Position numbers and translations under genes: made by a program | Assembly (NCBI GenBank): GCA_963759115.1 | Contig: CAVWXT010000002.1 | Coordinates: 373,557 to 437,556 of the forward strand | Origin: an uncultured Planctomycetaceae bacterium | GTDB taxonomy: Bacteria > Planctomycetota > Planctomycetia > Pirellulales > Thermoguttaceae | Length of the DNA: 64,000 nucleotides | Direction: 5' to 3' | Part shown: positions 4,130-62,215 of the stretch, in pieces | Position numbering within the stretch: position 1 is the first letter of the stretch | Layout of the letters: each line of letters begins with the position of its first letter | Notes under the pieces: model-generated | Told to the model about the DNA's origin: nothing | What the model saw: only the letters and a program-made list of their open reading frames with translations | The model's database searches: none

Positions 4130-4226
4130 GATTTTCGACGGCGGTCTTGCTTGTCCTGGCGGCCAGAAGCTGCCGACTTCCAAAACTCTCTTGACTTTAT
4201 GTCGCATGAACACTATAAGTAGCACG

Positions 4227-7896: not shown

Positions 7897-8295
7897 ATGC
7901 CTCAAAATCTCCTCTACAGCAAGACGCACGAATGGGTCCGCGTGGAAGCCGGCTCGTCCGGCGAGAAGACGGCCACCGTGGGACTGACGGCCTTCGCCCT
8001 GGAGGCCCTCACGGATCTGGTACACGTCGAGTTGCCCGAGGTCGGCCGCCACGTCAGCGCCGGCAAGCCGTTCGGCGAGATCGAATCGGTCAAGGCCGTC
8101 AGCGATCTCTATAGCCCCGTGGATGGCGAGGTGGTGGCCGTCAACGCGGCGCTGGCCGAGAACCTCGAACACCTCGCCGACGATCCCTACGGCGCCGGCT
8201 GGTTCGTCAAGATCAAGATCGGCAACGAGGCGGGCCTGGCCCAGTTGCTCGACGAAGCGGCGTACAAGAAACAGTGTGAAGAGGAACCGCATTGA
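7897..8295 (+). CDS. gcvH: glycine cleavage system H protein
   Basis: 132 aa with a lipoyl-lysine context (GEIESVKAVSDLYSPVDGEV). Confidence 0.92.
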   Translation: MPQNLLYSKTHEWVRVEAGSSGEKTATVGLTAFALEALTDLVHVELPEVGRHVSAGKPFGEIESVKAVSDLYSPVDGEVVAVNAALAENLEHLADDPYGAGWFVKIKIGNEAGLAQLLDEAAYKKQCEEEPH

Positions 8296-8309
8296 AGGAA
8301 TGATGATGT

Positions 8310-8385
8310 ATGAATGATGAATGATGAATGGCGATTTCCCGGCAAGACATTCATCATTCAGCATTCATCATTCATCATTTCCCGG
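8310..8385 (+). promoter_or_regulatory. long AT-rich inverted repeat / stem-loop between gcvH and gcvPA
   Basis: ATGAATGATGAATGATGAATG pairs with CATTCATCATTCATCAT; the loop contains TTTCCCGG and the arm is followed by a second TTTCCCGG. GGAG lies 5 nt upstream of the gcvPA ATG. Confidence 0.4.
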
Positions 8386-8392
8386 AGCCACC

Positions 8393-9724
8393 ATGCCTTA
8401 TTTTCCCAACACCGATGCCGACCGCCGGGCGATGCTCGAAGCGATCGGCGTCCGGTCGATCGACGATCTGCTGGCCATGGTCCCGGCCGAGCTGCGGATG
8501 AAGCGCGAATTGTGCGTGCCGCCGGGCCTGGGCGAGATGGAGCTGACGGCCCACGTCGCCGGGCTGGCGGCGCAGAACACGCCCGCTACGGCCGCCGCCT
8601 GCTTCCTCGGCGGCGGCAGCTACGACCATTTCATCCCCGCCGTGGTCGACGCGGTGGCCGGCCGCAGCGAGTTCTACACCGCCTACACCCCCTATCAGCC
8701 CGAAGCCAGCCAGGGCAGCTTGCAGGCGTTCTTCGAGTACCAGACGCTGATCGCGCAACTGACCGGCATGGACGTCTCGAACGCCAGCCTCTACGACGGC
8801 GGCAGCGCCGTGGCCGAGGCCGTGCTGATGGCCATGCACGCCACGGGCCGCAACCAGGTCGTGACCGCCGCCAGCGTACACCCGGAGTATCGGCAGATTC
8901 TGGCCACGTACCTGGCCAACCTGAACGTTGAGCTCATCACCCTCGGCGCGCCCGAGGGGACAATTTCGCCGGCCGAACTGGCCGCTGCGGTCAACCCGGC
9001 GACGGCCTGCGTGCTGTTGCAGCATCCCAATTTTTTCGGCTGCCTGGAGGAAGTCGAGCAAGCGGCCGAGATCGCCCACAAGGCCGGATCTCTGTTCGTC
9101 GTCTCGGTCGATCCGATCAGCCTGGGGCTCTTGAAGCGGCCGGGCGAATACGGGGCTGACATCGTCGTCGCCGAGGGGCAGTCGCTGGGCAACCCGATGG
9201 CCTTCGGCGGCCCGTACCTGGGAATCATGGCCTGCCGCGAGCAGTTCGTCCGCCGCATGCCCGGCCGGCTGGTCGGCCAGACGGTCGACCGCCGCGGCCG
9301 CCGCTGCTGGGTGCTGACGCTGCAAACCCGCGAGCAGCACATCCGCCGCGAAAAGGCCACGAGCAACATCTGCACCAACCAGGGCCTGTATGCGCTTCGG
9401 GCGACGGTCTACCTGTCGCTGATGGGGCCGGCCGGCATGCGCGACGTGGCCGAGTTGTGTCTGCAAAAGTCTCGCTATGCCGCCGAGCGGCTGGCCGCCG
9501 CGCCGTCGTTCTCGCTCAAGTTCGACCGGCCGACGTTCAAGGAGCTCGTCGTGCGCGTCGAAGGCCGATCCGTGGATGAACTGATTGAGCGCGCCCGGCA
9601 GCGCAACATTTTCGCCGGCGTGCCCTTGGGCCAGTGGTATCCGCACCTGGCCGATTGCCTGTTGGTGGCGGTGACGGAGAAACGAACCAAGGACGAGATC
9701 GATCGGTTGGCGGCCTGTGGTTAG
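8393..9724 (+). CDS. gcvPA: glycine dehydrogenase (decarboxylating) subunit 1, P-protein N-terminal subunit
   Basis: MPYFPNTDADRRAMLEAIGVRSIDDLL... 443 aa, intact. No gcvPB follows. Confidence 0.9.
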   Translation: MPYFPNTDADRRAMLEAIGVRSIDDLLAMVPAELRMKRELCVPPGLGEMELTAHVAGLAAQNTPATAAACFLGGGSYDHFIPAVVDAVAGRSEFYTAYTPYQPEASQGSLQAFFEYQTLIAQLTGMDVSNASLYDGGSAVAEAVLMAMHATGRNQVVTAASVHPEYRQILATYLANLNVELITLGAPEGTISPAELAAAVNPATACVLLQHPNFFGCLEEVEQAAEIAHKAGSLFVVSVDPISLGLLKRPGEYGADIVVAEGQSLGNPMAFGGPYLGIMACREQFVRRMPGRLVGQTVDRRGRRCWVLTLQTREQHIRREKATSNICTNQGLYALRATVYLSLMGPAGMRDVAELCLQKSRYAAERLAAAPSFSLKFDRPTFKELVVRVEGRSVDELIERARQRNIFAGVPLGQWYPHLADCLLVAVTEKRTKDEIDRLAACG

Positions 9725-11240: not shown

Positions 11241-12400
11241 CAGTGCGACCGGCTTGACGGTCATCCCCGGCCGCAGGTTCTGGATGCCGGACGTGACAAC
11301 CCAATCATCGGCGGTCAACCCGTCCGTCACGATATGCAGTCTGTCGTCCTGTAGCGGTCCCACCTGCACTTCGTGGTACTCGACGATGTTCTTGTCACTT
11401 ACGACGTACACGAACCTCTGTCGTTGGTCGCGTCCGATCGCTCTCTCTGGCACCAGCAGCGCCTTGTGGGGCGCGCTGGTCACGAGCCGCACGCGGGCGA
11501 ACAGGCCGGGCATGAGAACGCCATCGGGGTTCGGCAGCAACGCCCGCCAATGGGCCGAGCCGGTGTTCGGATCAATTTGATTCGCCGTTGACTCCAACTT
11601 GCCGTGGCGCGGAAAGCCCTTCTCGTCGCCCACCCCGCATTGGACCGATAGTTTCGACTCCGGGCCAGCCTTGTTATCGCCCGCGCGACGGAGTTTCAGA
11701 ATGGTGCGCTCATCGACGGCAAAGGTGACGCACATCGGATCGACCAAGACGATCGTGGCCAATAGCGTCTTCTCCGCCGTCACGAGGTTGCCTGCGTCGA
11801 CCTGGGAGCGGCTGATCCGACCGCCGATCGGCGCAGACACTTTGGTGAAGTCCAAGTTCAGTGCGGCGAGGCTCAACGCGGCCTTCGCCGCTCGCACGGC
11901 CTCCGCGGCCTCTTGCGCTGACTGGCGATCCGATCGACTTCCGGCTGTGCGACGGTGCCGGGCGTTTTCTCGTTCGCCTGCTTTGCCCGCTTCAGGTCGG
12001 CGTCGGCCCGATCCAATCGGAGTTGCGCAACCCGCTCCTCTCCCGTACGTTGGTCGACTTCAAGCAGATACTGTCGCGGGTCGATCTCGAACAACAGTTC
12101 GCCCGGCTTGACCGTCGTCCCGTCCTTGAAGAGGGTCTTGATGAGATGGCCGGTAGCGCGGCGCGGACCTCGACGACTCGGGCCGCTTCGATCCGGCCCG
12201 CGAAATCCTCGTGATCGGTGACTTCGCGGAGCACCGGCCGCGCGACGGTAACCGTGGGCGGCGTTTCGGTGGTTTTGGCCGGCGCGGATTGGCGCGAGGG
12301 GTCTCACTCATTTTCATTTTGGTTACCGGGGGCGGCTCGGTGGACTTCGATTGGCCGGGCAACTTAATGTCGATTCGACCGTCGTCGCCGACGGTCGCAC
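11240..12400 (-). CDS. HlyD/MFP-family efflux periplasmic adaptor, copy 1; several frameshifts near the N-terminus; start uncertain
   Basis: Across three frames it reads PVLREVTDHEDFAGRIEAARVVEVRA, then LFKDGTTVKPGELLFEIDPRQYLLEVDQ...AQLRLDRADADLKRAK, then LNLDFTKVSAPIGGRISRSQVDAGNLV...VKPVALEPE. Confidence 0.5.
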
Positions 12401-12546
12401 TGCTACCGTCGGGGATTTCGACGCTGGATTTCTGCCCGTCTCTCGTGATGGTGATTATGATCCCCAGAGCGAAGCCAAAACCGCCGACGAACAGCAGCAG
12501 CACGATGAGTGTTACAATACGAACGCCAACCGTGCAACGCCGCGAG

Positions 12547-12650
12547 CGGCTGCGGTGAACTTTTGCCCTCACCCCGACCCTCTCCCGGCGGGAGAGGGGA
12601 CCGAGGCGCGCCGCCCTCACCCTGGCCCTCTCCCGGCGGGAGAGGGGACG
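12547..12650. repeat. two tandem copies of the CCCTCACC...CCCTCTCCCGGCGGGAGAGGG palindromic repeat (family E)
   Basis: The same element occurs in the opposite orientation at 19513..19560. Here it lies in the junction or C-terminal tail region of the kinase gene. Confidence 0.55.
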
Positions 12651-12659
12651 ATTCTCTTG

Positions 12660-14033
12660 TTTCGACCGCTTGTCGCAACAGCGCCGGCAAATCCGCGCCG
12701 GCGCAGAACGGAGCCAATGCCTCGGCCACTTCGGCCGGCGTGGCGTATCGCGATTCGGCGCGGGTCTTTGGCCAACATGCGATCCAGCACGGCCGCCAAG
12801 CCCGTCGGGAATCTCCGGGCAAAACTGGCGGATCGGCGGGATCGGCTCCTGGCGATGGGCCAGCATCTTGTCGAACGTGCCCTGGTACTCCGGCCCGCTG
12901 AACGGGGCCCGGCCGGAAAGCAGCTTGTAGAGCGTGGCCCCGAGGCTGTAGATGTCGGCGCGGATATCGACCGCCCGGCTGTCGGAGGCCTGCTCGGGGG
13001 CCATGTAGTCGGCCGTGCCCATCGCCTGGCCCGTGCCGGTCATATCGTCTTCGGGCGGCTCAAAGGCTGAAGGGGACAGTCCCATTTTTGCGGCGGCTCG
13101 GATCCGTTGGAGAAGCAACGTTGCTGGGCCGGCAAATTGGGACAGTCCCCCGTTGCGAATCGGGCCAGCCCCAGGTCGAGCAGCTTCACTTGGCCCTCGG
13201 GCGTGAGCATCAGGTTCGAGGCTTGAGTCGCGGTGGACCAGGCCGTGTTCGTGGGCGGCCTGCAGGCCCAGGGCCGCTTGCCGGGCCAGCTCGCAGGCGT
13301 CGGCCACGGGGATCGGGCCGGAAAGGGGACAGCCTTGTGCGCAGCACCCTCGGGTCGTTCCGGCAAATGGCGCTGTCCCCTTTTCCGGCCCAGCCGGCGG
13401 ACGATTTCCGCCAGGTCGAGCCCCTCGACGAACTCCATGACCAGCACCAGCCGGCCTTCGATTTCGCGGGCGTCGTAGGCGCGGACGATGTGGGGATGAT
13501 CGAGCCGGCCGATGGCCTTCATCTCCCGCTCGAAGCGGACGACCGCCCGCGGGTCGTCGGTCCGGCCGCGCGGCAGGACCTTCAGGGCGACGACCCGATC
13601 GAGCCGGTTGTGCAGGGCCTTGTAGACCGTGCCCATGCCGCCGCTGCCCAGCCGCTCGATCAAGCTGGTACTCGCCGAGTTGCTGGGGCAACGAGGGCTC
13701 GGAAGTGCCCGGCAACGTTTCGTCGCGGGGGGCGGCAGTGCCGCCGCCACTCCAACGCTGCGAATCGGCGGCCGCCTCGACTCCACCCAACGCCGCCTTC
13801 GCCCGGGCAACGGCCTGGCCGCACTCGGGCTCATCCAGAACGGGTCCGGCGCGATCGGCGCCGCGAAGCCGGGCGACCAGCGTGTCGTCGGCGTCGGCCA
13901 GCGTGGCCAACTCGGCCTGGCAATCCGGGCAGGATTCCAGGTGGCCGGCCAAGGAGTCGGAGGCGTCGTCGGGCAGCTTGCCGACGAGATAATCCATCAG
14001 TTGCTCGCGGCTCGGGCAGGTTGCGGTTGGCAT
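12660..14033 (-). CDS. Ser/Thr protein kinase with N-terminal anti-sigma-like zinc-finger domain; at least 5 frame changes plus repeat insertions; possibly a pseudogene
   Basis: The N-terminus MPTATCPSREQLMDYLVGKLPDDASDSLAGHLESCPDCQAEL is anti-sigma-factor-like. The kinase motifs LGSGGMGTVYKA, HEHGLVHRD, NLMLTPEGQVKLLDLGLARF, GTADYMAPEQ and LDRMLAKDP are spread over three frames. GGGGACAG elements sit at 13068..13153 and 13313..13372. Confidence 0.55.
13068..13153. repeat. GGGGACAG-family palindromic element inside the kinase gene
   Basis: GAAGGGGACAGTCCCATTTTTGC ... GCAAATTGGGACAGTCCCCC; the reading frame changes across it. Confidence 0.55.
13313..13372. repeat. GGGGACAG-family palindromic element inside the kinase gene
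   Basis: CCGGAAAGGGGACAGCC ... GGCGCTGTCCCCTTTTCCGG. On the coding strand it translates to GRKRGQRHLPERPEGAAHKAVPFPA, the same peptide family as rnr copy 2. Confidence 0.55.
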
Positions 14034-14241
14034 GGCGCAGTTCCTTGGGAAGAGCGGTATCTGTAGGACAGGTTGCTAACCTGTCGGGACAGGGCTTTGG
14101 GCTTTGGTCTTGGGGCTTCGGTCTTTGGGCTTAGACCCAAGGTCCAAGGCCGAAGTCCGAAGGCCCAAGCTCGAAGACCCCTCTATAAGGACTAACGGAG
14201 TCATTTGACACCATTTTCCCACCACCCCTTCACGGAACCAA

Positions 14242-14874
14242 TCACTCCAGCAGCCCCTGCAACTGCTCGCGGAGCCGCCGCAGCACGCGGGACTTCGCCT
14301 TGTAGACCGCCATGAGGCTGAGGCCCAAGGCGGAGGCAACCTCGTCGGGCGACTGGCCGTCGACCACGATCCGCCAAAAGGCATCCCAGGTGCGGTTCTC
14401 GAACTCGACCCGCACCAGATCCAACATGCGGCGGAGGAAGCCGGCGTCGGTTTCCATGCGCTCGGCCCGACTGCCCGAGACCGATTCGTCGACTGCTTCG
14501 GCCAGGTTCAGGAGTTGCTCGTAGGCGTGCGTGCCCCCTTCGGCATCGGGTTGGCAAAGGCGCTGGCGGTAGAGATCGCAGACCTTGTTGCGGGTGATCG
14601 TCCGCAGCCAGGCCCCGAAACTGTCGTCCGGCCGGTCGCGGCGGAACTGATCGAGATGGGCCGCGACGGCGCCAAAAACCTCTTGGGCGACGTCGGCGGC
14701 GTCGGTGCGATCCACCCCCAGTTGGCGACACCAGCGATAGACGACCGGTCCGTAGAGATCGACCAGCCGCTGCCAGGCCTCGGGCCGCCGGGCGCGAATC
14801 CGCTCCAGCAGCGTCGAGGAGATCGAACTCGGCTGCGATCCGCCGTTCCGGCTGCTGTCGATCCGCGCGTTCAT
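14242..14874 (-). CDS. ECF (sigma-70 family group 4) RNA polymerase sigma factor
   Basis: MNARIDSS...LERIRARRPEAWQRLVDLYGPVVYRWCR (region 2) ... SPDEVASALGLSLMAVYKAKSRVLRRLREQL (region 4 HTH). The longer GTG-initiated extension would include the family-B palindrome at 14917..14941. Confidence 0.8.
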   Translation of the reverse strand: MNARIDSSRNGGSQPSSISSTLLERIRARRPEAWQRLVDLYGPVVYRWCRQLGVDRTDAADVAQEVFGAVAAHLDQFRRDRPDDSFGAWLRTITRNKVCDLYRQRLCQPDAEGGTHAYEQLLNLAEAVDESVSGSRAERMETDAGFLRRMLDLVRVEFENRTWDAFWRIVVDGQSPDEVASALGLSLMAVYKAKSRVLRRLREQLQGLLE

Positions 14875-14996
14875 TGGCCCCCCGTCCGTCCACAATAGAG
14901 CGGATTTCAATCCGCTTGAACGGAACGAATTCCGTTCTACCAGGCTTCTAAGCCTCCTTCGATTGTAATGCGGGGGAAGACGGAGGCCAAGCGCGC

Positions 14997-16427
14997 TCAC
15001 TCGCCCAACTGCGACTTTCGCCGCAAGAGGTGATGATAGTGTTGGGCGAAACGGTGGGCCTCGTCGCGGACGTATTGCAGCAGCCGCAGGGCATAACTGT
15101 GCCGGCTCAGACGCAACGGCTCGTCGGCCTCCGGCGTGAAGACCAGTTCTTCGCGCTTGGCCAAGGAAATCACGATCGTTCGGCCTTCCCGTGTGCCACT
15201 GCCGGCTTGCCCAGCAGTGTTCGTACGAGGACGGAATCCGGCGTCGCTTTCGGCACTGCCGGACAAGCCGGCAGCTGGCACGCCAGCGCCGCCAGCGCCG
15301 CGTTGAGTTGCCCCTGGCCGCCGTCGATCAACAGGATGTCGGGCGGCGTTTCGCCTTCCTGCCGGATGTGCTGGAACCGCCGGGCGACGGCCTCGTGGAT
15401 GCTGGCCACGTCGTCGGGCCCTGCCACGCTGCGAATCTTCATCCGCCTGTAGCCCGGCTTGAACGGCAGGCCGTCGATGAACTGCACCACGCTGGCCACC
15501 GTCTCCGTGCCGGCCAGTGTGGGCGATGTCGATGCCTTCGATCGTCCGCGGCCGCTTCTCCAGGTGCAGCACCTTCTTGCAGCCCGGCCAGCCCGCGCTT
15601 CGGGTCGATCGGGAAAGACCTCGGGCTGGACGTGCGTTTCCAGTTCGCCGCGGTCGTCGAGCGATTCGAGCATGTCGATTTCGTCGCGCAGCCGGCCGGC
15701 CTCCTCGAATCGCAGCTCCTTGGCCGCGGCGGCCATCTCCTCGCGCATCTCGCCGAGCAGCCGGTTCTTGCCGCCTTCGAGAAACCGCTGGAGGCGGTGG
15801 ATGTCTCTTGCGATATTCTTCCTTCGAGATTCGCAAATTGCACGGCGCCGTGCATTGGCCGATCGAGTGCAGCAGGCAGGGGCGGAACCACCGCCAGCGC
15901 TTGTCGCTCTCGTCGATATCCAGCGTGCAGGTGCGGAACTTGAAAATCTTCTGCAACACCTGGATCGCCCCGCGCAGGCCGCGGGGATTGGCGAACGGCC
16001 CGTAGAGCTTCGTGCCCCGCGCCTTCGGCTCGCGGGTGAAACGCACGCGGGGAAAATCCTCGTGCGTGAAAATCTCCAGGTAAGGAAACGTCTTGTCGTC
16101 GCGCAGGTCGCGGTTGAACTTCGGCAGGATGTCCTTGATCAGCCGGGCTTCCATCAGCAGGGCGTCGATTTCGCTCTCGGCGTCGAGATAGTCGATGTCG
16201 CGGATTTCCAGGACGAGCTTGGCGGTCCGCGGGTCTTCGGCGGCCGCCTTCAAGAAGTAGCTGCCCGCCCGGGCGCGGAGGTTCTTCGCCTTGCCCACGT
16301 AGATCACCCGGCCGGCGTCGTCCTTCATCAGGTAGACGCCGGGCGTCTGCGGGAAGGAGCGGACCTTCTCGGCAGCCAAGGAGTTGTCGGCGGGGGGAAG
16401 GGTTTCAGCCATCTCTTTCATTTTCAC
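14997..16427 (-). CDS. uvrC: excinuclease ABC subunit C (UvrC), several 1-bp frameshifts clustered at 15540-15600 plus about 15190 and about 15830
   Basis: GIY-YIG N-terminus (GVYLMKDDAGRVIYVGKAKNLRAR); the middle part (RLRDEIDMLESL..FPIDPKRGLAGLQKVLHLEKRPRTIEGIDIAHLAGTETVASVV) is spread over three frames; the C-terminal HhH (HSYALRLLQYVRDEAHRFAQ) is in the first frame again. Confidence 0.75.
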   Translation of the reverse strand: MKMKEMAETLPPADNSLAAEKVRSFPQTPGVYLMKDDAGRVIYVGKAKNLRARAGSYFLKAAAEDPRTAKLVLEIRDIDYLDAESEIDALLMEARLIKDILPKFNRDLRDDKTFPYLEIFTHEDFPRVRFTREPKARGTKLYGPFANPRGLRGAIQVLQKIFKFRTCTLDIDESDKRWRWFRPCLLHSIGQCTAPCNLRISKEEYRKRHPPPPAVSRRRQEPAARRDARGDGRRGQGAAIRGGRPAARRNRHARIARRPRRTGNARPARGLSRSTRSAGWPGCKKVLHLEKRPRTIEGIDIAHTGRHGDGGQRGAVHRRPAVQAGLQADEDSQRGRARRRGQHPRGRRPAVPAHPAGRRNAARHPVDRRRPGATQRGAGGAGVPAAGLSGSAESDAGFRPRTNTAGQAGSGTREGRTIVISLAKREELVFTPEADEPLRLSRHSYALRLLQYVRDEAHRFAQHYHHLLRRKSQLGE

Positions 16428-19454: not shown

Positions 19455-19560
19455 CACAAAGCCGCGACCGGTGGTCGCGTCAGAGGGATTAGGGATTAGG
19501 GATTAGGGATTGGCTTCGCTCTCTCCCCTCTCCCTCCGGGAGAGGGGCAGGGGGTGAGGG
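19454..19560. repeat. composite repeat cluster after groEL: GCGACCGGTGGTCGC hairpin, (GGGATTA)x4 heptamer array, and a family-E palindrome
   Basis: aaagccGCGACCGGTGGTCGCgtcaga / gggattagggattagggattagggattgg / cccctctccctccgggagaggggcagggggtgaggg. Confidence 0.6.
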
Positions 19561-23314: not shown

Positions 23315-24800
23315 TGAAGCGGAGTCGGGCTCTGCGGGGACGCAACCCGACAAGGAATAGCCAGGTTAGGGCGGGTGAATGACCCGTGATGCCCTGGCGG
23401 TATCCACTGCCAGGGCAGTTTTGTCTCACCGACTCATTCATTTGCTCTACTATGCCTCCGAAAATCCGACCCTGCCAAACACCAGCACACCCGCCGCAAT
23501 TGGCAACGGCTTGTCACTCGTCGTCGCGCACCTAGTAGTCACCCATTCGTGCCGTCCGAGCCGAAGCCCGTCGCATATTGTATTGTTCACCGGTCACAGT
23601 GCCCAATCAGGAGGACAGTGCAGACTTGCGTCTCACGAGAACCCCTTTGCGGGCCAGCCGCGACCGTACTCGTGCGCGATATCGTGTTGCTCTCTACGCC
23701 GCCTGGTGGGCGTGCTCACGCTGCCAACGACGCAGCCGCTTCCAACATATCTCCGCCAGTTTGCGGGCCACCGCCACCCGTGCAATCTTTGCGCCGGATC
23801 GCTTCCGCACCCGCGTGTAAAAGTTCTTCAAGGCCGCGTCCTCGCGGATCGCCTTGATGGCCGCCTCCACGAGAATCCATCGCAACCACGTCGACCCTTG
23901 CCGTGTAATCGAACCGCGGTAGCAGTGTCCGCCCGACTGATGCACACGGCAGGTCAGCCCGGCGTACGCGCCGACCTGTTTTGCCATGCGGAAACGCTCC
24001 ACTTCGCCGATTTCCGCCACGATCAACAACGCCGAGTACAGGCCGATGCCGTGAATCTCGGTCAAGGCTTCCGCTTGCGGAAAAGCCGCCGACATCCGCG
24101 CGATGTGCCGGTCGATGATCGTCGCTTGCCGTCCGAAATGTTTCAATCGCGCCAGTAGTTCGTCGCGGACCAGATTCTCGATCCAGCCGAAGTCTTGCCC
24201 ACGAAACCAAGCTAAGCCGCGGACGCCGAAAGGAACCCGATAAGGGGCTTGCCGATTTTGCCTGGCCAACAAGGCCCGCAAGTGGATTTTCGCCTCGGCC
24301 AACTCGCGGCCCAGACGTGCCCGGCGGCGTGTCAGCTCGCGGAGTTGCTGGTACGGCTCCGGCGGAATGTAGGCCAGCGGAATCTGGTTGATCCGCAACA
24401 GGTTCGCCAACAATTGGGCGTCCAGCTTGTCCGTTTTGGTGCGTTGTTGTACCATAGCCCGCAGACGAAACGGATGGGCCAATAAGATCGTACCGTACGG
24501 TCGGAGCAGGTCGTACAGCCAGCGATACGTTGCGCTGGCCTCGATGACCGCCCGAAAGGATCCCAACGCCTGGACGACGTTCACGATGCTGGCGGTGTCT
24601 TCACAGCGAACGGTGACGGGCTTGATAACTTCGCCCGTGTCGTTCACGGCGGCAATCACCACGGTCTCACGGTGCAAATCGATACCCACGTGCCACATGA
24701 ATAGGTCTCCTTGTTTGGTGGAGGAAAGATGGATTCGTTACTGCTTCCATCCTACTCCACCAGCAAGGGGCCTATCACGCGGCGGTTATAGTATCAGGAG
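23315..24800 (-). mobile_element. IS110-family insertion sequence, copy 2 (divergent transposase, identical 52-bp end block)
   Basis: TATAAT then 9 nt then the conserved 52-bp block at 23321..23372; a longer 3' non-coding region with the cctccgaaaatccg motif shared with copy 1; hairpins upstream of the transposase ATG. Confidence 0.7.
23694..24698 (-). CDS. IS110-family transposase
   Basis: 334 aa: MWHVGIDLHRETVVIAAVNDTGEVI...KTDKLDAQLLANLL...IHGIGLYSALLIVAEIGEVERF... Confidence 0.85.
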   Translation of the reverse strand: MWHVGIDLHRETVVIAAVNDTGEVIKPVTVRCEDTASIVNVVQALGSFRAVIEASATYRWLYDLLRPYGTILLAHPFRLRAMVQQRTKTDKLDAQLLANLLRINQIPLAYIPPEPYQQLRELTRRRARLGRELAEAKIHLRALLARQNRQAPYRVPFGVRGLAWFRGQDFGWIENLVRDELLARLKHFGRQATIIDRHIARMSAAFPQAEALTEIHGIGLYSALLIVAEIGEVERFRMAKQVGAYAGLTCRVHQSGGHCYRGSITRQGSTWLRWILVEAAIKAIREDAALKNFYTRVRKRSGAKIARVAVARKLAEICWKRLRRWQREHAHQAA

Positions 24801-24825: not shown

Positions 24826-24975
24826 GCGGCTCAGCTAACTTAGCTCAGGCACTCGCGTGCCTGACCACTCCCTCACGTGGCGTCCCGGACGGCCGTTCGA
24901 TCCCATTTGGCACAATTTCTGCCCTAGACAACGCCCGGCGACCAGCGCATCATAACGAGCGCGGGACGCTGTAGC
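24826..24975. repeat. about 140-bp repeat (copy A) flanking the ParE-Phd cassette
   Basis: About 88% identical to 25748..25880; contains GGCACTCGCGTGCC and ACGAGCGCGGGACGCTGTA. Confidence 0.6.
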
Positions 24976-24985
24976 CACAGCCACA

Positions 24986-25048: not shown

Positions 25049-25182
25049 TCTCGCCCGACGGGGGGACCGAACTGTTTCCAATTCTTGGGAGAACGCCATT
25101 GCCGCTACAGAGGAGTCGCGGCCCTGTGCTGGCGTGCGCGTCCTTACTGGACTGCCCGCACGGAGTATAATCGTATACAGGA

Positions 25183-25486
25183 GTGAGAGCCGTGCGATTC
25201 CAGGTGACCCTGACGCCCAGCGCGGATGAAGACCTCAAACATTACCGTGCATTCGAGCAACGAGCCATTGTCGACGCGATGAAGATTCACTTGAGGGCCG
25301 ATGCGAACGTCGAGACCAAGCGCCGAAAGAGATTGGCCGGACATCCGGTTGCACCCCTGGGAACTGCGAGTCGGCAACTATCGCGTCTTCTACGAATTGG
25401 AAGCGGAAACTCGCGTCAAGGTCGTTGCCGTTGGACACAAAGAACACAACGACCTGTTCATACGGGGAAAGATGGTGAATTTATGA
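25183..25486 (+). CDS. ParE/RelE-family toxin, frameshifted at about 25350
   Basis: MRAVRFQVTLTPSADEDLKHYRAFEQRAIVDAMKIHL.. in one frame, then WELRVGNYRVFYELEAETRVKVVAVGHKEHNDLF in the next. Confidence 0.5.
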
Positions 25487-25737
25487 CCAAAGTGGACGTG
25501 CGTCAAAGACCCGTCAGCGTCGATGAACTGCTGCAATTGGCCAGCGATGACGCAGTGCTCGTCGTCAGCCGCGACGGCCACGAGTTCGTCGTCGAGGCCG
25601 CGGATGCCTTCGACCGCGAGGTCGCTCGACTGGCCGAGAGCAGGAACTTCATGTCGTTCCTGGCCGAACGTTCCCGAGAATCCGGCAGCGTGCCGCTCGA
25701 AGAGATTGAACAACGCTTTGGCGCCGAGCCGCAATGA
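25483..25737 (+). CDS. Phd/YefM-like antitoxin located downstream of the toxin
   Basis: MTKVDVRQRPVSVDELLQLASDDAVLVVSRDGHEFVVEAADAFDREVARLAESRNFMSFL; ATGA overlap with the toxin stop. Confidence 0.5.
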   Translation: MTKVDVRQRPVSVDELLQLASDDAVLVVSRDGHEFVVEAADAFDREVARLAESRNFMSFLAERSRESGSVPLEEIEQRFGAEPQ

Positions 25738-25747
25738 CAGCCAACGT

Positions 25748-25880
25748 AGATCAGGCACTCCCGTGCCTGACATCTCCCTCACGTGACGTCCCGGACGGTC
25801 GTCCGATCCGCTTTGGCCCAATTTCTGCCCTAGACAACGCCCGCCGCCCGGCGCATCATAACGAGTGCGGGACGCTGTAT
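25748..25880. repeat. about 140-bp repeat (copy B)
   Basis: See 24826..24975. Confidence 0.6.
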
Positions 25881-25960
25881 CGGCAGCTTCTGCGGGGGCC
25901 TGCGGCGACGAACGTGAAATTGGAAATCTATCGCGTTGTTGAACAACGCAAGCGACGGCC

Positions 25961-26578
25961 ATGAACAAGAAACAACTGCTCGCTTCGCTCGAAGGGCAGG
26001 ACTCGTCCACGTTGATCGAGTTCCTGGAAGCGGCCTACGACCAAATGAACACCGACCAGCGGCGGGCGGTCTTCGGCAAAGCGGTGAAGAAGGCCAAGCC
26101 GCCGGCTGTCGACGGCAAGTCCCTGTTGGCAGACGTGAAGCATTTCCAACGCGATTCCCTGGCCCGCGCCTACTACGCCCCATTCGACATCAACTCGAAG
26201 AACTTCAGCCACGTTCCCGAGCAGACGAACGCCTGGTTTGACCGCCTCGGCGATTTGTTGAACGATTGCGCCCGCCTGTCGCAACAGGGCGACCACGCGG
26301 GCGCCGTGGAGTGCTTCCGAATCCTGTACGAGTTGGTCGAGGCGATGGGGCGCGGCGAGGAGATCGTATTCGCCGACGAATATGGCACGTGGATGATCCC
26401 CGTGGATGAAAGGAAGATCATCGCCGCGTATCTGGCGTCTCTGGCGGCGATCTCGACGCCCGAGCAATACGCCGCCGCCGCCCTGCCACTGGTGCGACGG
26501 GACAGCATGGAGTCGTTCAGCAAGAAGACGTACAGCGCGGCATCCGTGCCGCCAACAAGGCCCAGAAGGCGCGATTGA
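25961..26578 (+). CDS. hypothetical protein
   Basis: 205-aa ORF (MNKKQLLASLEGQDSSTLIEFLEAAYDQMNTDQRRAVFGK...); no recognisable domain. Confidence 0.4.
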   Translation: MNKKQLLASLEGQDSSTLIEFLEAAYDQMNTDQRRAVFGKAVKKAKPPAVDGKSLLADVKHFQRDSLARAYYAPFDINSKNFSHVPEQTNAWFDRLGDLLNDCARLSQQGDHAGAVECFRILYELVEAMGRGEEIVFADEYGTWMIPVDERKIIAAYLASLAAISTPEQYAAAALPLVRRDSMESFSKKTYSAASVPPTRPRRRD

Positions 26579-26754
26579 AAGCGGAGGTGCAGCCCGACGA
26601 CATTCCGCCGCGGCGGTGTGGCAATGACGAAGCGAACTGAAACGGCGTGCCGCTGGCTTTGCCAATGCTGTGGGCGTTTCACGGTCCCATCGAGGCTTGA
26701 GCAAGGATGGGAAACCGGCAGGGCAGACAGGAGGCAGAGCGACCGGCAGGGAGG

Positions 26755-26960
26755 AAGAAGTACGGAGTACGGAGTACGGAGTGCCAGGCAAGCAGCGCAG
26801 AGAGGGCAAGTGGTCGCTTCCTACTCCGTACTCCGTACTGGGTACTCGGTACCTGAGTGTTTCTCCCCCTTGTCAAAACGGCCCTCACTTGCTAGCCTGA
26901 CCCTGCACTTTACTTCACCTTGTATCCGCAGCACTCCGTACTTGGTACTCCGTACTCTTT
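26755..26960. repeat. inverted arrays of heptamer AGTACGG / CCGTACT tandem repeats upstream of the four-helix-bundle gene
   Basis: gaAGTACGGAGTACGGAGTACGGAGTgcc (26755-26790), then CTCCGTACTCCGTACTGGGTACTCGGTAC (26815-26850), then CACTCCGTACTTGGTACTCCGTACTC (26930-26960). Confidence 0.6.
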
Positions 26961-26978
26961 CTCGCCAAGGAGCCGCAC

Positions 26979-27461
26979 ATGCCCGCCGCACGGAGCTTTA
27001 CGGAGCTTCTGTTCTGGCAGCGGGCAAGACAATGGTCGAAACGGATCTTTCAGTGTACCGGCCGCGAACCGTTTCATGGCGACCGGCGCCTGACGGTGCA
27101 AATTAACGATTCCTCCGAATCGATCACGGCCAACATCGCCGAAGGGTTCGGCCGCGGCACACAGGGAGAGTTTGTCTTGTTTCTCGGCTATGCGATCGGG
27201 AGCCTCGACGAGACCCAATCGCATCTTTGCACCGCTTACGACCGCGAGTATCTGACAAAGACCGAGTTCGGCGAGCTTTTTCAGGAGGGGACGGAGATTC
27301 GCAAGATGACCGTCGGCTTCATTGGCTCGATGGTCAAGCCAGGGTCGGGCGTCAAGCACTTGCGCAAGATGCCGAGTTGGACCGAACAGGTTTGGGAGTT
27401 GTATGAGCGGACCACCGGCAAGCCTCGTCCGCCGCTATTTCAGCAACCGAAGCAGGAGTGA
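26979..27461 (+). CDS. four-helix-bundle protein (23S rRNA intervening-sequence protein family, TIGR02436-like)
   Basis: FTELLFWQRARQWSKRIFQ...SITANIAEGFGRGTQGEFVLFLGYAIGSLDETQSHLCTAYDREYLTKTEFGELFQEGTEIRKM. Confidence 0.7.
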   Translation: MPAARSFTELLFWQRARQWSKRIFQCTGREPFHGDRRLTVQINDSSESITANIAEGFGRGTQGEFVLFLGYAIGSLDETQSHLCTAYDREYLTKTEFGELFQEGTEIRKMTVGFIGSMVKPGSGVKHLRKMPSWTEQVWELYERTTGKPRPPLFQQPKQE

Positions 27462-27474
27462 GAGGGCGGCGTGG

Positions 27475-27600
27475 CGAGAACGAAGTACGGAATGAAGAGT
27501 ACGAAGTACGGAGTACGGAGCAGAAGAGTACGAAGTATGAAGTACGGCGCAGAGAGGTACGAAGCACGGAGTACAAAGCACGGGCAAAGAGTACGGAGTG
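27475..27600. repeat. degenerate AGTACGG/AGTACGA heptamer array downstream of the four-helix-bundle gene
   Basis: gaAGTACGGAATGAAGAGTACGAAGTACGGAGTACGGAGcagaAGAGTACGAAGTATGAAGTACGG... Confidence 0.55.
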
Positions 27601-27642
27601 CGCAGTACGGATGGTGCAAGTAGTCTCGTATGGGAGGATGCT

Positions 27643-28446
27643 ATGGACAAACTGACTCGAAGATCAATGTTGCGACGGTCGTCCGCTCTGGCGGGAGCGG
27701 CGCTGCTGCCGTCGGCGACGGCCCAGGCGCAAGAGAAACCCGCCGCGGCCGACCGGAAGCTGACGATCGTTGCCGTGGGTGGTCACTTCGACAACCCCCA
27801 GTCCTGTGCCGGCGGAACCTTGACTCTATTCGCGGACCAAGGGCACGAAGTGGTGGGGCTGTCGATCACCGGCGGACCGCCTCCTGCCCCCGGCGCAAAT
27901 CCCGAAGACCGCTCCGTCAAGAACCGTTTGAACGCCATGCGGATGGCGGAAATCCTGAAGATTCGGCTGGAGTGCCTGGACTATGTCGGCTCGAACAGCG
28001 GCCAGTTTTCGCCTTCCGTCGGCTACGCGACCGGTTGTGAAGTCTCGGGACAGCGGTATAAGGAATTCACGGAGATCCTGCTGGACAAGTACAAGCCGGA
28101 CCTAGTCTTCACCCACTGGCCGATTGATTTCCACATGGACCATCGGGCCGCTTCGCTGTTGACTTTTGAGGCCTGGTTGCGGGGCGGGAGGAAGTTCCCG
28201 CTCTATTACATGGAAGCGGAACTGGGGACCCAGACGCAGAACTTCTACGCCACGCATTACGTGGACATCACCTCCGTGGAGGAGCGCACGCACGAGGCGT
28301 GGAAGGCCGACACCTTGTGGTACGACGCCTGCTGGCCTCTCCACGACCGGATGCGGCGGATCCGGGGCGGCGAACACGGCTGCAAGGTGGCCGAGGCCTT
28401 CAACCACCACCCCCAAAGTCCGCGGGCGCCGGCGTTGCCGGCGTGA
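27643..28446 (+). CDS. PIG-L/LmbE-family N-acetylglucosaminyl deacetylase, TAT-secreted
   Basis: MDKLTRRSMLRRSSALAGAALLPSATAQA twin-arginine signal; HWPIDFHMDHRAAS; GGGAGG RBS. Confidence 0.7.
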   Translation: MDKLTRRSMLRRSSALAGAALLPSATAQAQEKPAAADRKLTIVAVGGHFDNPQSCAGGTLTLFADQGHEVVGLSITGGPPPAPGANPEDRSVKNRLNAMRMAEILKIRLECLDYVGSNSGQFSPSVGYATGCEVSGQRYKEFTEILLDKYKPDLVFTHWPIDFHMDHRAASLLTFEAWLRGGRKFPLYYMEAELGTQTQNFYATHYVDITSVEERTHEAWKADTLWYDACWPLHDRMRRIRGGEHGCKVAEAFNHHPQSPRAPALPA

Positions 28447-30749: not shown

Positions 30750-30788
30750 CCCAATTCCCAATCTCAAATCCCTAATCCCCAATCCCTC
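30750..30788. repeat. CCCAAT/CCCTAAT heptamer array after the DUF1080 gene
   Basis: cccaattcccaatctcaaatccctaatccccaatccctc. Confidence 0.5.
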
Positions 30789-46767: not shown

Positions 46768-46896
46768 ACGACGCACCGCTTTCAAGAAGTGTGCCACTGC
46801 TCCGCAGGAGCAGTGCCCGGCGGGATCTGGCCCTGGGTCTTGGGTCTTGGTGCGAAGGCCAAAGACCCAAGACCCAAGGCCGAAGAGCTAAAATCC

Positions 46897-49800
46897 TCAC
46901 TTCCGCTGCTCGCCGGCGACGCCCTTGGTGTACTCGCGGAACTGCTCGGCGAAATCCGGCGGCGGGGGCGACTGGCCGCCATCGTGGAGATTCTGAAGCT
47001 TGTCGCGTTGCACTTCGCCCAGGGCCAGTCCCGTGCCGCGGGGGCGGAGGCCGAGGCTCTTCAGCGCGTCGTTGAACTGCCTTCTCGCGGCGTCGCCTAC
47101 GGGCCCCTTCTGCGCCGCGGATTGCCTCATCTTCTCCCAGTGTTCGAGGAACTTTCGCGCGTCTTCCTTGGTCCATCCGAGTCGTTCCAACAGCGCGGGC
47201 TTCTCCTTGGCCAGTTGATCGCGGAGGTGCTCCAGGGCCAACTCGGTCTGCTGGCGGCTGTACTCGCCATTTGCGTCATCGGCCGCGTCGTCGACGGGCT
47301 CCGGCGGCGGTGACGCCTGGGGGCGTTCGCGGGCCTTGCTGCCAGGCGTCGGATTGCCCGTGCCGCGGGCGGCCGGGCCCTCGGAGGTCTGCTGGCCCGG
47401 CGTGCCGCCATTGGCCGGCTTCTCTTGCGGCGCCGCCCTCCGCGGAGTCGTCTTGCGACGACGGTTTCTCGGCGGCTTCTTTGCCGTCGGCCTGTTTCTT
47501 CTCGCCGGTTCCGCCGCCCTTCCCGGCGGGCGTTTTCGCCGTGCTGCCGGTGGGCTGTTTCGAAGCGGCTTTGTCGCCGGCCTTGCTGCCGATTTCGCCT
47601 TGGCCCGGTTCATCGGCCTTTGAGCCGCCTTGGTCGGCAGGGGTCTGCGTGCCGGGGCCGCCGATGCCCTTCTGATTGGTCTGTTGACCGCCGCCCTCCT
47701 GGCCCCCGCCGGAGCGGTCGCCGGCGGTGTCGCCCCGCGAATCCGACTGATTCTTGCTCGTGCTGGGCGACTGAGGTTGCTCGCCTTTCCGCTCGCCCGG
47801 CGCCGAGCCCGACTCGCCGGGCTTCTTCTCACGCGGCTGGTTGTCTCCCTGCGGCATTGGAGCGGCGGCATTATCGCCGGTCTTCTGGCCGGCGCCGGGC
47901 GATTGCTTGGCGATGGGCTGTTGTTCGCCCGGCTTCTTATCGCTGGGTGCCTGATTGTCGGCGGGCTGCTCTTGCTTCTGCCCATCCGCCTTCGAGCCTG
48001 AGTTCTCCGCACCAGCCTTTTCCGCGCCAGCCTTCTCAGCACCGGCCTTCTCAGCACTCGCCTTCTGATCGCCGCCAGCCTTTTGATCGCCGCCGGCCTT
48101 CTGATCGCCGCCAGACTTCTGATCGCCGCCGGCCTTCTGATCGCCGCCAGACTTCTGATCGCCGCCGGCCTTCTGATCGCCACCAGACTTCTGATCGCCA
48201 CCAGACTTCTGATCGCCACCAGACTTCTGATCGCCACCAGACTTCTGATCGCCGCCAGACTTCTGATCGCCGCCAGACTTCTGATCGCCACCAGACTTCT
48301 GATCGCCGCCAGACTTCTGATCGCCACCCGCCTTCTGATCGCCACCCGCCTTCTGATCGCCACCCGCCTTCTGATCGCCACCCGCCTTCTGATCGCCACC
48401 GGCCTTCTGATCGCCGCCAGCCTTCTGATCGCCGCCGGACTTCTGATCGCCACCAGCCTTTTGATCTCCGGACTTCTGATCCCCCGCCTTCTGATCGCCA
48501 GACTTATCGGCACCCGACGGCGGTTGGTTGCCCTGCTGGTTGTCGGAGGTGGATTGCTCGGTCTTCGACTGCTTTTGCTGTTCCTGTTGGCGATCCTTGA
48601 TGATTTCCTGCATGGCGTCGCCGTCGTTGACGCCCGGCTCGATGCGCTCGTTGGGCTTCTCCGACGGTTCATTGCCCTGTTGTCCGCCGGACGTTTGTTC
48701 GGGACCTTGTTGCTTGCCCTTGTCTTGGCCCGATTTGCCAGACTCCGACTTGCCGCCGTCCTGGCCGGACTTGGCGGAATCCGATTGGCCGCCATTCTTC
48801 CCGGCGTTTTGGCCGCCCTGGGAGGAATCGGACTGTCCCTTGGTCCCACCCTTGCCAGGTTCCTCTTGGCGCTGCTGGTCCGGTTGGCCCTCTTTGGGCG
48901 GTTGCTCCTCGGGGGGCTGCTGCCTGTTCGCTAAAATGTCTTTCGGCCGTTCCTGCGATGGTCGCTCCGGGCTAGCCTGTTCGTTCGGCGGTTGTCCCTT
49001 GTTGGGCTGTGCCTGATCGCCCTGCGCTCCCTCGGGCGTCTTCTTTGGTTGCCGAGGGCCATCGGAAACAACCACGGTGATCCACTGCCTTTCGGTGGCG
49101 GAATGGCCCGCCGTTGGCTCCTTGTTGTCATCCGCCTCGGCCCAATACGGCACGCGGTCGCCGGCCTTCAGCCCCAACTTGGCAGGTTCCAACGTGTACG
49201 CCGCTGCGAATTCACCGGGCCACGCCTTCTCCGGTTTCTTCTTGTCCAACAGCGGGGTATTGAGCACGCTCCGGCCGTCGCGTTCGGCCCGCAAGGTCAC
49301 GCGCCGCAACGCAAAATCCGGGTCCTCTGCCCGCACGCCGATGGTGAGCTTGCCATTTTCCGGCACCTGCACCTCTGCCTTCTGCGGCTCGGTCAGTCGC
49401 ACGTCCGGCGGCAAGTCGCGGATCACGTCGATGTGGTAGCGGATCGGGTGGGTATTGTCGCGGCCGTGGGTGTCGGTGAAGCGAAGCTGGTACGAATCGT
49501 AGGCGGCGCCGGCGGCGTCCTTGGCACTCGCCCGCAAAGTGATGCGGCCGATGGCCGTGGCGCCGTCAACGGTCATTCCCAGGCCGCGGCGGCCGGTGCA
49601 ACCGACGTCGATCTCCGCCGTGCCGGGTTTGATGTTGGTGTTGGCGGTCGCATAAAGCGTGACTTCGGTCCCTTCGATCGCCCGCAAATCGCCCTGCCGT
49701 TGGACCGTTTGGTCGGCGATGCCCGTGTAAGCCGGGTAGCGGTACGAAACCTTGTCGACCACGATGGCGGGCGCGATCTGCGCATCGATGCGGTAACGGC

Positions 49801-50698: not shown

Positions 50699-50785
50699 AG
50701 GGGGTGCTCCGGGCACTTTCACGGCTCTCTCTGTATTATAGACGCGATTGGGCCTGCGAGGTTCCCCTCGCCGCGCATTTCCGCG

Positions 50786-52193: not shown

Positions 52194-52234
52194 TCCCTAA
52201 CCCCCAATCTCTAATCCCAAATCCCCAATCCCCC
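52191..52234. repeat. CCCTAAT/CCCAAT heptamer array between ykgJ and hisS
   Basis: taatccctaacccccaatctctaatcccaaatccccaatccccc. Confidence 0.5.
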
Positions 52235-52241
52235 GTCACCC

Positions 52242-62112: not shown

Positions 62113-62215
62113 TGTGACGCCTCCGTTTCGCGTGGTTCGCCCGTATCTTGGGCGATCCGACTGCGAATGTCAACATGCGGGGTTCTCGCCGCAGGGCCAA
62201 TGAGTTCTTCGATGT

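Follow-up and report, generated by a model that had tools for sequence, protein, structure and literature searches.

What is a gene of the 23S rRNA intervening sequence (IVS) family doing among protein-coding genes, between inverted arrays of a seven-nucleotide repeat? The question was raised by a locus in a 64,000-nt stretch of DNA from an uncultured Planctomycetaceae bacterium (contig CAVWXT010000002.1, positions 373,557 to 437,556; hereafter the window), where the open reading frame (ORF) at 26979-27461 encodes a four-helix-bundle (4HB) protein and is surrounded by arrays of the heptamer AGTACGG. To our knowledge, the S23p or 'four helix bundle' family is very abundant, has been represented by structures since 2006 and is without a known role. 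An interpretation made from the letters of the window (the sequence-only reading) had taken the locus for an IVS-like cassette living outside rRNA, mobile or excisable, or for a selfish element. The analysis described here indicates that the locus is probably one instance of a conserved and widely distributed cassette, a 4HB gene enclosed in a stem, which is the free-standing counterpart of 23S IVSs that carry an ORF. The cassette can be defined, with moderate confidence, as a PF05635 gene between inverted arrays of a short unit, usually of 7 nt, which form a stem of 20-150 bp with the ORF in its loop.

An IVS-type gene enclosed by inverted heptamer arrays

The product of the ORF matched PF05635 (23S_rRNA_IVP; E-value 5.8e-27, 94.4 bits against a cut-off of 33.8) and TIGR02436 ('four helix bundle protein'; E-value 1.6e-27, 95.9 bits against a cut-off of 24), which bears out its earlier assignment to the 23S IVS-type family. 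PF05635 was the sole Pfam match, and no HUH/Y1 transposase domain was present. PADLOC and PHROGs gave no match for the protein, and an exact-sequence look-up of its 160 residues returned no record; the closest named homologues came from Thermoguttaceae/Planctomycetota. Among the window gene and its close relatives, the ratio of nonsynonymous to synonymous substitution rates (dN/dS) was 0.09-0.16, and the 4HB protein is therefore functional and under purifying selection.

Exact AGTACGG occurred 18 times in the window, compared with 2.7 ± 1.6 times in shuffled sequences (maximum 6), and 13 of the 18 copies fell within 26759-27610, in four arrays around the ORF. These arrays, termed G1, C1, C2 and G2 in their order (Table 1), were delimited by direct sequence reading, Tandem Repeats Finder and an inverted-repeat search. 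Their direct and inverted orientations were as the sequence-only reading had described them, with boundaries right to within a few bases, and its impression that they are specific to this locus held as well: arrays of AGTACGG were restricted to the 4HB locus throughout the window. The end of G2 was separated by 33 nt from the ATG of a PIG-L family gene at 27643. Rfam searches at gathering thresholds detected no rRNA anywhere in the 64 kb, in agreement with the first impression that none lay nearby. At the locus itself, no described RNA family was matched: with permissive E-values, Rfam gave only sub-threshold similarities between the hairpin and miRNA precursors.

The minimum-free-energy fold of 26740-27625 contained a G1:C1 hairpin and a long-range C2:G2 stem around the ORF, in which C2 paired with G2 at 27495-27520 and in other registers. 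This fold had a z-score of -3.4, and none of 20 shuffles was equally stable; the long stem that had been supposed to enclose the gene is thus predicted, with a length of 26-34 bp. The C2×G2 duplex had an energy of -48.0 kcal/mol, compared with -30.2 ± 3.1 kcal/mol when G2 was shuffled. The G1×C1 (-50.4 kcal/mol) and G1×C2 (-61.3 kcal/mol) duplexes were stable as well, so that alternative pairings exist, and the inverted-repeat search and duplex energies indicated that C1 is also able to pair with G2. The subfamily of the window (Thermoguttaceae-type, with a 160-aa protein and GTAC-core units) represents a variant layout, G1-C1-spacer-C2-ORF-G2, which makes such alternative pairings possible. 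A consensus promoter scan of the locus found no promoter. A weak motif in the C1-C2 spacer, CCCCC.CTTG.C ... CTG.TAGC.T, was common to the window and its relative L001, and is a possible candidate promoter.

An AlphaFold2 model of the window protein (mean predicted local distance difference test, pLDDT, 86.8) comprised helices at residues 11-27, 36-57, 62-88 and 94-119, and a fifth helix at residues 134-146 in the C-terminal extension. The family is said to share the motif GxxRxxxSxxxNxxE, reportedly noted by Lin in 2006. This motif has been described (Zhang 2013, PMC3936711); S48, N52 and E55 of it are present and invariant, and the arginine position is occupied by D44 in the subfamily of the window (NDSSES). 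The best Foldseek matches were 2GSC (XCC0516; TM-score 0.91 normalised to the target, root-mean-square deviation 1.4-2.4 Å) and 2RLD (BT_0352), followed by 4DWL, the accessory protein Avd of diversity-generating retroelements (DGRs). These three solved structures comprise five chains each. The TM-score was ~0.8, normalised to the target, for Avd structures 4DWL and 8UBE, at 11-12% identity, and the modelled 4HB protein thus appears to share a homologous fold with the nucleic-acid-binding Avd. Together with the report that no Pfam family is encountered more often in DGR loci than PF05635 (PMC10053308), this resemblance would allow the window gene to be the Avd gene of a DGR. However, the sequence identity is low, the window protein has an extra C-terminal helix, no reverse transcriptase (RVT) domain was found among the Pfam-scanned neighbours of the gene, and repeat searches at the locus detected heptamer arrays only, without a template/variable repeat pair. 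The sole retroelement signal was a group II intron 35 kb away. With no reverse transcriptase among the neighbours, an Avd identity is effectively refuted for this locus, and we give it hardly any credence.

Inverted heptamer arrays accompany the family at diverse loci

The sequence-only reading had considered the family to be usually located inside 23S rRNA, which did not hold. No rRNA was detected around the family loci checked, either by a motif search on the fetched loci or by Rfam on 15 long loci, and copies of the gene occur in accBC and cas operons (PMC3936711); a free-standing copy is therefore the norm rather than an anomaly. The surroundings of such copies were surveyed in a sample of 80 diverse metagenomic 4HB-family loci, with proteins 31-68% identical to that of the window. 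In one density count, 74 period-7 arrays lay no more than 400 nt from the 4HB gene, in 58.8 kb of sequence, compared with 47 in the remaining 330.6 kb of the same loci, a density about 9 times higher. Tandem Repeats Finder located 71 period-7 arrays in 41 kb of flank and 58 in 422 kb of the rest (about 12 times denser), along with arrays at multiples of 7 and a minority at period 8 around 4HB genes.

Bracketing was evaluated for 67 4HB genes with at least 200 nt on each side, with 162 other ORFs of the same loci as the control. An array was present upstream of 26 of the 4HB genes, downstream of 29 and on both sides of 19, and in 18 of these 19 the downstream unit was the reverse complement of the upstream unit. 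A reverse-complementary bracket was thus found for 18 of 67 4HB genes and 0 of 162 other ORFs; 12 and 8 of the control ORFs had an array at one or the other end, and none had arrays at both. The architecture recurs across phyla and is specific to the 4HB family relative to neighbouring genes.

Complementarity of the arms was measured by local alignment of the upstream flank with the reverse complement of the downstream flank, using mismatched loci as the control. It exceeded the 95th percentile of the control at 57 of 82 loci, the 99th percentile at 36 and the maximum at 18. RNAduplex on 200-nt flanks had been dropped in favour of this alignment, as it over-pairs long GC-rich arms. The heptamer units varied by locus (GGTTTCA, GAGTAAC, GAGTGCT, GGTTCAA, AGGGTCT, GGGAGGC, AGGGTTT and others) while the arms stayed complementary, and such a change of unit with preserved complementarity reads as covariation at the level of the whole array. 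The loops of inverted array pairs measured either at most 100 nt or 300-700 nt, and the second class corresponds to the length of a 4HB gene. At L186 (flanks of 311-706) and L184 (flanks of 1372-1743), each arm comprised about 20 heptamers, and 133 and 74 Watson-Crick pairs, respectively, were counted in the local alignments.

The 5' arm was G-rich in 30 stems and C-rich in four, the exceptions including those of the window and L126. Gene-less hairpins of the window, including that at 8298-8383, share the G-rich-arm-first polarity of the 4HB-enclosing stems. Read on either strand, a hairpin shows one and the same polarity, which is therefore uninformative on gene orientation. The upstream neighbour had the same orientation as the 4HB gene in 50 of 68 cases, the downstream neighbour in 57 of 72, and the median gap to a neighbour was ~70 nt, mostly of array sequence. 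Such gaps leave little room for a promoter of the gene's own, implying co-transcription with the neighbours.

Gene and arrays are inherited together and can be lost together

Homologues 64-94% identical to the window protein were found in at least five unrelated contexts: the window and L002, which are syntenic; L001; L003-L005; L126; and L213-L221. All of these carried upstream arrays with a GTAC core (AGTACGG, AGTACTG, GGTACCG or GTACTGA), and a downstream array was present in the window, L002 and L126. Nucleotide homology between the window and L001 set in exactly where C2 starts and ended with the stop codon (26932-27462), and their genomic contexts differed. Furthermore, the match between heptamer units was 6.1 of 7 positions at protein identities of at least 70%, 4.4 of 7 at 50-70%, and 3.8 of 7, the baseline, below 50%; none of 300 permutations gave a correlation as high. 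Taken together, the contexts and the tracking of protein identity by the unit imply that arrays and gene were inherited, and apparently relocated, together. In close relatives, unit and gene are passed on as one, and, judging by the lower matches at greater distances, the unit turns over on longer time scales.

A locus without the gene, L206, was located through the downstream PIG-L gene. It is syntenic with the window and L002 on both sides and contains no 4HB ORF. Relative to L002, whose flanks are near-identical, L206 lacks positions 3933-4527, a segment that comprises C2 from its first GTAC, the 5' untranslated region, the ORF and the beginning of G2. In L206, the junction reads TTGCC|GTACGGAGTACGG, with GTAC at both breakpoints, which amounts to a 4-bp microhomology without target-site duplication. 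The gene occupies this position in both the window and L002, and the spacer is common to L206 and L002, so that loss in L206 is the parsimonious direction. The arm-ORF-arm segment can therefore be lost precisely at the DNA level, and the 'excisable' cassette of the sequence-only reading has here its one direct support. The breakpoints of L206 bear the signature of a deletion that took place at the foot of a hairpin or cruciform by way of short direct homology between the arms, which exists because the GTAC core is palindromic.

Array length differed among the syntenic loci of the window, L002 and L206, a variation that might be expected if the arrays were operators or iterons, that is, sites bound by the 4HB protein or a host factor to regulate the gene, for example by autoregulation or by slippage-driven phase variation. 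At many loci, an array adjoins the start codon or runs into it, purine-rich 5' arms resemble ribosome-binding sites, and heptamer copy number varies among Coxiella strains (PMC4990558). In contrast, no variation in array length or copy number was observed at the P0104 locus across nine samples, the protein has no recognisable DNA-binding domain, and a regulatory site would leave the reverse-complementarity of the downstream arm unexplained. This explanation is accordingly judged improbable.

Relation to rRNA intervening sequences and to known heptamer repeats

IVSs interrupt 23S rRNA in helix 9, 25 or 45, ORF-containing IVSs are found in Leptospira, Brucella and Haemophilus as well as in Coxiella, and cleavage of IVSs by RNase III has also been demonstrated in Leptospira and Salmonella. 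The 428-nt IVS in helix 45 of Coxiella burnetii carries an S23p ORF and a 28-bp terminal stem, which RNase III was shown to cut in vitro and by rapid amplification of cDNA ends (PMC4990558). Two to three tandem, strain-variable copies of GACAGAT lie upstream of the ORF, with the 5' cut at the first repeat; the Coxiella IVS brings these heptamers into a helix that is natively without them (PMC4990558). A literature search found heptamers together with an IVS in this publication only. The comparison of the window locus with RNase III-processed IVSs is therefore apt: both hold an S23p/PF05635 protein gene in the loop of a stem formed by terminal inverted repeats. In contrast to the ORF-containing IVSs, the window copy lies outside rRNA among protein-coding genes, no rRNA was found around the other family loci checked either, the arms of the cassette are long tandem arrays of up to ~18 units, and the window follows the variant layout described above. 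In addition, the Coxiella ORF is decaying and probably untranslated, whereas ORFs of the window type are under purifying selection.

In Xanthomonas arboricola and X. sacchari, the homologue of XCC0516 (2GSC) lies between accB and accC, with GGGAATC-type arrays upstream and a complementary array downstream. In its predicted fold, four units, each of 6 bp and 1 mismatch, enclosed the entire ORF (z-score -4.7). The GGGAATC array supplies the first eight codons of the annotated protein, an overlap that would also suit the operator explanation. Genes of the 23S_rRNA_IVP family are likewise found inside cas operons of all types (PMC3936711; also PMC10910872). As the Xanthomonas copies sit within the accBC operon, the cas-operon copies look like insertions into operons, by analogy, rather than components of CRISPR function.

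Heptameric simple-sequence repeats, and heptameric ones alone, are strongly over-represented between genes in Xanthomonas and Nostoc, the unit of Nostoc being GGGGAYT; in Xanthomonas, GGGAATC occupies ~186 intergenic sites, with ~70 convergent (inverted) pairs (PMC4692102). TAACTGA heptamers are known from Beggiatoaceae, cyanobacteria and Bacteroidetes (PMC4679880). These repeats have been treated as free-standing, with G-quadruplexes or translational control proposed as their roles (PMC4692102, PMC4679880), and a text search of both publications found no mention of S23p/4HB genes. The G-quadruplex explanation (Rehm 2015) was rejected as a general one, as most units, AGTACGG included, have too few G runs. 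The arrays described here resemble these repeats and the short tandemly repeated repetitive sequences (STRRs) of cyanobacteria in their tandem 7-nt intergenic units, the excess at period 7 and the frequent inverted pairs. They differ in being tied to a gene, with complementarity of the arms as the common denominator.

A heptamer excess was also evident in the window, which contained 10 tandem arrays at period 7 and none at periods 5, 6, 8, 9, 10 or 11 when one threshold was applied to all periods; 20 dinucleotide shuffles contained no arrays, and neither did a 50-kb stretch of E. coli K-12 at period 7. All of the window arrays were intergenic. Heptamer arrays as such are common in this genome, and the restriction to period 7 suggests that the repeats of this planctomycete are produced or kept by a process specific to heptamers. 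The sequence-only reading had named, as a finding that would speak against it, that such arrays were common in the genome and unrelated to the gene family. They are common in the window, with other units, whereas their association with the family is strong and specific.

The dispersed arrays bring in the main rival of the cassette reading, in which the 4HB protein acts in trans to create, spread or maintain heptamer arrays genome-wide. Systems of this kind pair the repetitive extragenic palindrome (REP) and its REPIN form with the REP-associated tyrosine transposase (RAYT), whose genes are reportedly flanked by REPs (Nunvar in 2010, Bertels and Rainey in 2011). The arrays flanking the 4HB gene would then be the 'home' copy, and the gene-less intergenic hairpins its non-autonomous derivatives. 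The likeness extends to a strongly conserved single gene between inverted repeats that, in Xanthomonas, also form gene-less intergenic hairpins, and to a repeat family that is co-inherited with the gene: GGGAATC, which brackets the 4HB genes of L209 and L210, is the very unit of the ~186 intergenic sites. Arrays distant from the gene shared the unit of the 4HB-flanking arrays of the same locus in 13 of 33 cases, compared with 7.6% in a cross-locus control, and the period-7 arrays of the window would find an explanation as well. However, the protein is a four-helix bundle in which no known catalytic motif, recombinase or HUH/Y1 domain was identified, and we know of no transposition activity for it. 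The repeats are tandem heptamer arrays rather than the single palindromes of RAYT systems. None of the eight other arrays of the window shared the AGTACGG unit, against a dispersed unit in 7 of 12 other loci. Moreover, proteins 40-50% identical keep the surface motif (S..xN..E) with unrelated units, which argues against sequence-specific recognition. Spread or maintenance in trans is hence a possibility to which we attach only limited belief, as is the derivation of the gene-less hairpins from a home copy; the relation could also be complementary to the cassette reading.

In its broadest and equally tentative form, this rival would make 4HB (S23p/Avd-like) proteins and heptamer arrays one system, with the protein as the trans-acting partner that seeds, spreads or maintains array hairpins. 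If this were true, ORF-bearing rRNA IVSs, cyanobacterial STRRs and the heptamers of Xanthomonas and Nostoc would be its products, and the system would be a functional analogue of RAYT/REPIN with an unrelated protein.

The association is asymmetric between gene and repeat

A search starting from the repeat was carried out by scanning species-representative genomes for GTAC-core heptamer arrays. It yielded at least 120 loci, from Planctomycetota, Gemmatimonadota, Acidobacteriota, Acidimicrobiia, Chloroflexia, Bacteroidota, Omnitrophota, Nostoc and others. Of 120 such loci, only four contained a 4HB gene, which adjoined the array in three; in L072 and L092, a 4HB gene of ~120 aa was directly bracketed by arrays. 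The proposition that GTAC arrays mark 4HB genes was rejected on these counts. Loops of 300-700 nt at the GTAC loci were inspected for missed 4HB genes, and inverted arrays were found to bracket a 161-aa Bcp-like peroxiredoxin (L104, 2698-3297; identified by sequence inspection) and an 80-aa predicted membrane ORF (L040, 2274-2705). Most GTAC-core arrays are gene-less, whereas many 4HB genes are array-bracketed.

Such an asymmetry recalls a further explanation, in which heptamer hairpins are general terminators, insulators or mRNA stabilisers that arise by polymerase slippage. Small, horizontally acquired 4HB genes would insert into their loops or survive best there, and the stem would be irrelevant to the biology of the gene. 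The gene-less hairpins that fill spacers of the window, at 8302-8383 and 14091-14165, are in keeping with this, as are the low number of GTAC loci with an adjoining 4HB gene (3 of 120), the slippage proposed as the cause of the heptamer over-representation in many genomes (PMC4692102), and the location of IVSs at helix tips of 23S rRNA (PMC4990558). On the other hand, the Coxiella IVS imports its heptamers, GTAC-type arrays accompany the window subfamily through at least five unrelated contexts with a unit that tracks protein identity, and none of the 162 other ORFs was bracketed, so that bracketing is not general to small genes. Because the arrays travel with the gene, a purely passive landing-pad model is disfavoured; we consider it unlikely both that the hairpins are general elements of this kind and that the genes merely settle in their loops.

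Surroundings of the cassette and other repeats of the window

The features of the locus and of the other arrays are collected in Table 1. The cassette does not have the marks of an insertion sequence or miniature inverted-repeat transposable element: no transposase gene belongs to it, and the L002/L206 junction showed microhomology instead of a duplicated target. The region 25056-26775 was 94.4% identical to L002, with a synonymous divergence (dS) of 0.017 for its antitoxin-like ORF, and the flank with the IS110 gene and the ParE module is possibly a recently spread island. Between the window and L002, dS was 0.60 for the 4HB gene and 0.017 for the adjacent antitoxin-like ORF, and the PIG-L gene differed from its relatives by 0.33-0.40. 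A replacement of the cassette, considered on account of the first two values, was rejected in view of the PIG-L values and of the flank, which may itself have spread recently. A sequence of ~150 nt is duplicated at 24832-24981 and about 25739-25890; both copies match L206 1912-2059, and L002 2665-2814 is a further match to the first.

The GAATGAT hairpin takes up the entire 98-nt spacer between gcvH (7897-8295) and gcvP (8393-9724), and the GGGCTTT hairpin is flanked by two minus-strand ORFs, one protein-kinase-like (12060-14033) and the other resembling an ECF (extracytoplasmic function) sigma factor (14242-15000). The array at 19479-19516 is (AGGGATT)x4, directly 3' of groEL. Its unit family, RGGGATT, resembles the GGGGATT repeat of Nostoc (Rehm et al. 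2015), and L003 carries this unit, as AATCCCC, 3' of its 4HB gene. Units similar to the pair at 46834-46886 were found around the 4HB genes of L182 and L201 (AGGGTCT and AAGGTCT). The group II intron signal corresponds to the 3' catalytic region at 62987-63067 on the plus strand (Rfam RF00029, 56.5 bits, E-value 2e-08); an ORF upstream of it (61184-62203) had no Pfam match. An 18-nt tandem repeat of 24.8 copies with 90% matches (48060-48499) and a 15-nt repeat (48003-48066) lie inside long minus-strand ORFs (46897-48849 and 47276-50722), and probably encode a repetitive hexapeptide region.

Table 1 Features of the cassette locus, its neighbourhood, the other heptamer arrays of the window and the Xanthomonas genes
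Feature	Position	Strand	Description
G1 array, AGTACGG x3.4	26754..26784 (core 26759-26782)	+	100% matches; unique flanks GAAGAAG... / ...GAGTGC; 5' arm of upstream hairpin; 31-nt inverted repeat with C2, 87% complementary
C1 array, TACTCCG x4.4	26822..26852	+	Complement orientation; 3' arm of G1:C1 hairpin
C1-C2 spacer	26853..26932	+	Non-repeat; sequence alignment
C2 array, ACTCCGT x3.6	26931..26961 (core 26933-26957)	+	Complement orientation; 18 nt upstream of start codon; 5' arm of ORF-enclosing stem; 26 nt, 88% complementary to G2
Shine-Dalgarno-like AAGGAG	26967..26972	+	6 nt before ATG; also in L001 and L002
4HB gene, 160 aa	26979..27461	+	PF05635 core and subfamily-specific C-terminal extension
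G2 array, AGTACGG/AGTACGA, ~18 units	27480..27610	+	Degenerate; 3' arm of enclosing stem
IS110-family transposase gene	23694-24698	-	Pfam; element separate from cassette
ParE-like toxin/antitoxin module	beside IS110 gene		Pfam
ORF without Pfam match	25961-26578		Pfam scan
PIG-L deacetylase gene	27643-28446		Pfam
3-keto-disaccharide hydrolase gene	neighbour of cassette		Pfam
Gene-less hairpin, GAATGAT x4.7 / ATCATTC x4.6	8298-8383 (arrays 8302-8383)		Inverted arrays
Gene-less hairpin, GGGCTTT-type arm and complement	14091-14180 (arrays 14091-14165)		
RGGGATT family and complement	19479-19516, 30750-30787, 52190-52243 (arrays 19479-19516, 30758-30787, 52204-52243)		Three dispersed arrays
TGGGTCT x2.4 and AAGACCC x3.6	46834-46886		Small inverted pair
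Xanthomonas 4HB gene, L209	3001-3390		
Xanthomonas 4HB genes, L210 and L211	3001-3378		

Proposed mechanism and points weighing against it

If the cassette reading is correct, most copies would be transcribed within host transcripts, and both arms would land in one RNA. The double-stranded stem may then be cut by RNase III, in analogy to true IVSs; cleavage would free the ORF RNA from the RNAs on its two sides and disconnect these from each other, while an uncut stem could occlude the ribosome-binding region. At the DNA level, the arrays may serve as the sites at which the cassette is gained or lost, whether a dedicated activity is involved or the hairpin base undergoes slippage or recombination.

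Several observations weigh against this reading. Mismatches in the stems that are transitions showed no G-U bias on the sense strand (42 versus 48), and transversions (94) were as frequent as transitions, so that sense RNA is not singled out as the selected structure; homogenisation of the arms at the DNA level would yield the same covariation. A clear bracket was present in only ~45-70% of the loci, the downstream arm is absent or a remnant in L001, L003 and L213, and inverted heptamer pairs occur, rarely, around other genes, such as the peroxiredoxin of L104. The strongest duplex of the window locus, G1×C2, leaves the ORF outside the hairpin. As for movement, no target-site duplications and no recombinase were found for the cassette, the P0104 copy occupied one fixed context on 24 contigs, and L206 is a single event with which site-specific excision and replication slippage are both compatible. 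We infer cleavage of this cassette by RNase III from the analogy with IVSs, and mobility from the differing contexts and the one deletion event; the mobility and selfishness presumed for the window copy are to be read in the same way.

Significance

The literature search found no publication describing a link between the 4HB family and inverted heptamer arrays, and, as far as these searches show, the cassette class has apparently not been described as such. Recognition of the cassette links three matters that have been treated separately, namely the function of S23p/4HB proteins, the origin of ORF-bearing rRNA IVSs, and the heptamer excess in Xanthomonas, cyanobacteria and others. It bears on genome annotation, and also on metagenome assembly, as such arrays are frequent points of contig breakage. 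The 'associations' reported between 4HB genes and CRISPR loci may be insertions rather than functional links. At this locus and its relatives, gene and repeats belong together: the gene lies in the loop of a stem of inverted heptamer arrays, the unit of which varies while the arms remain complementary.

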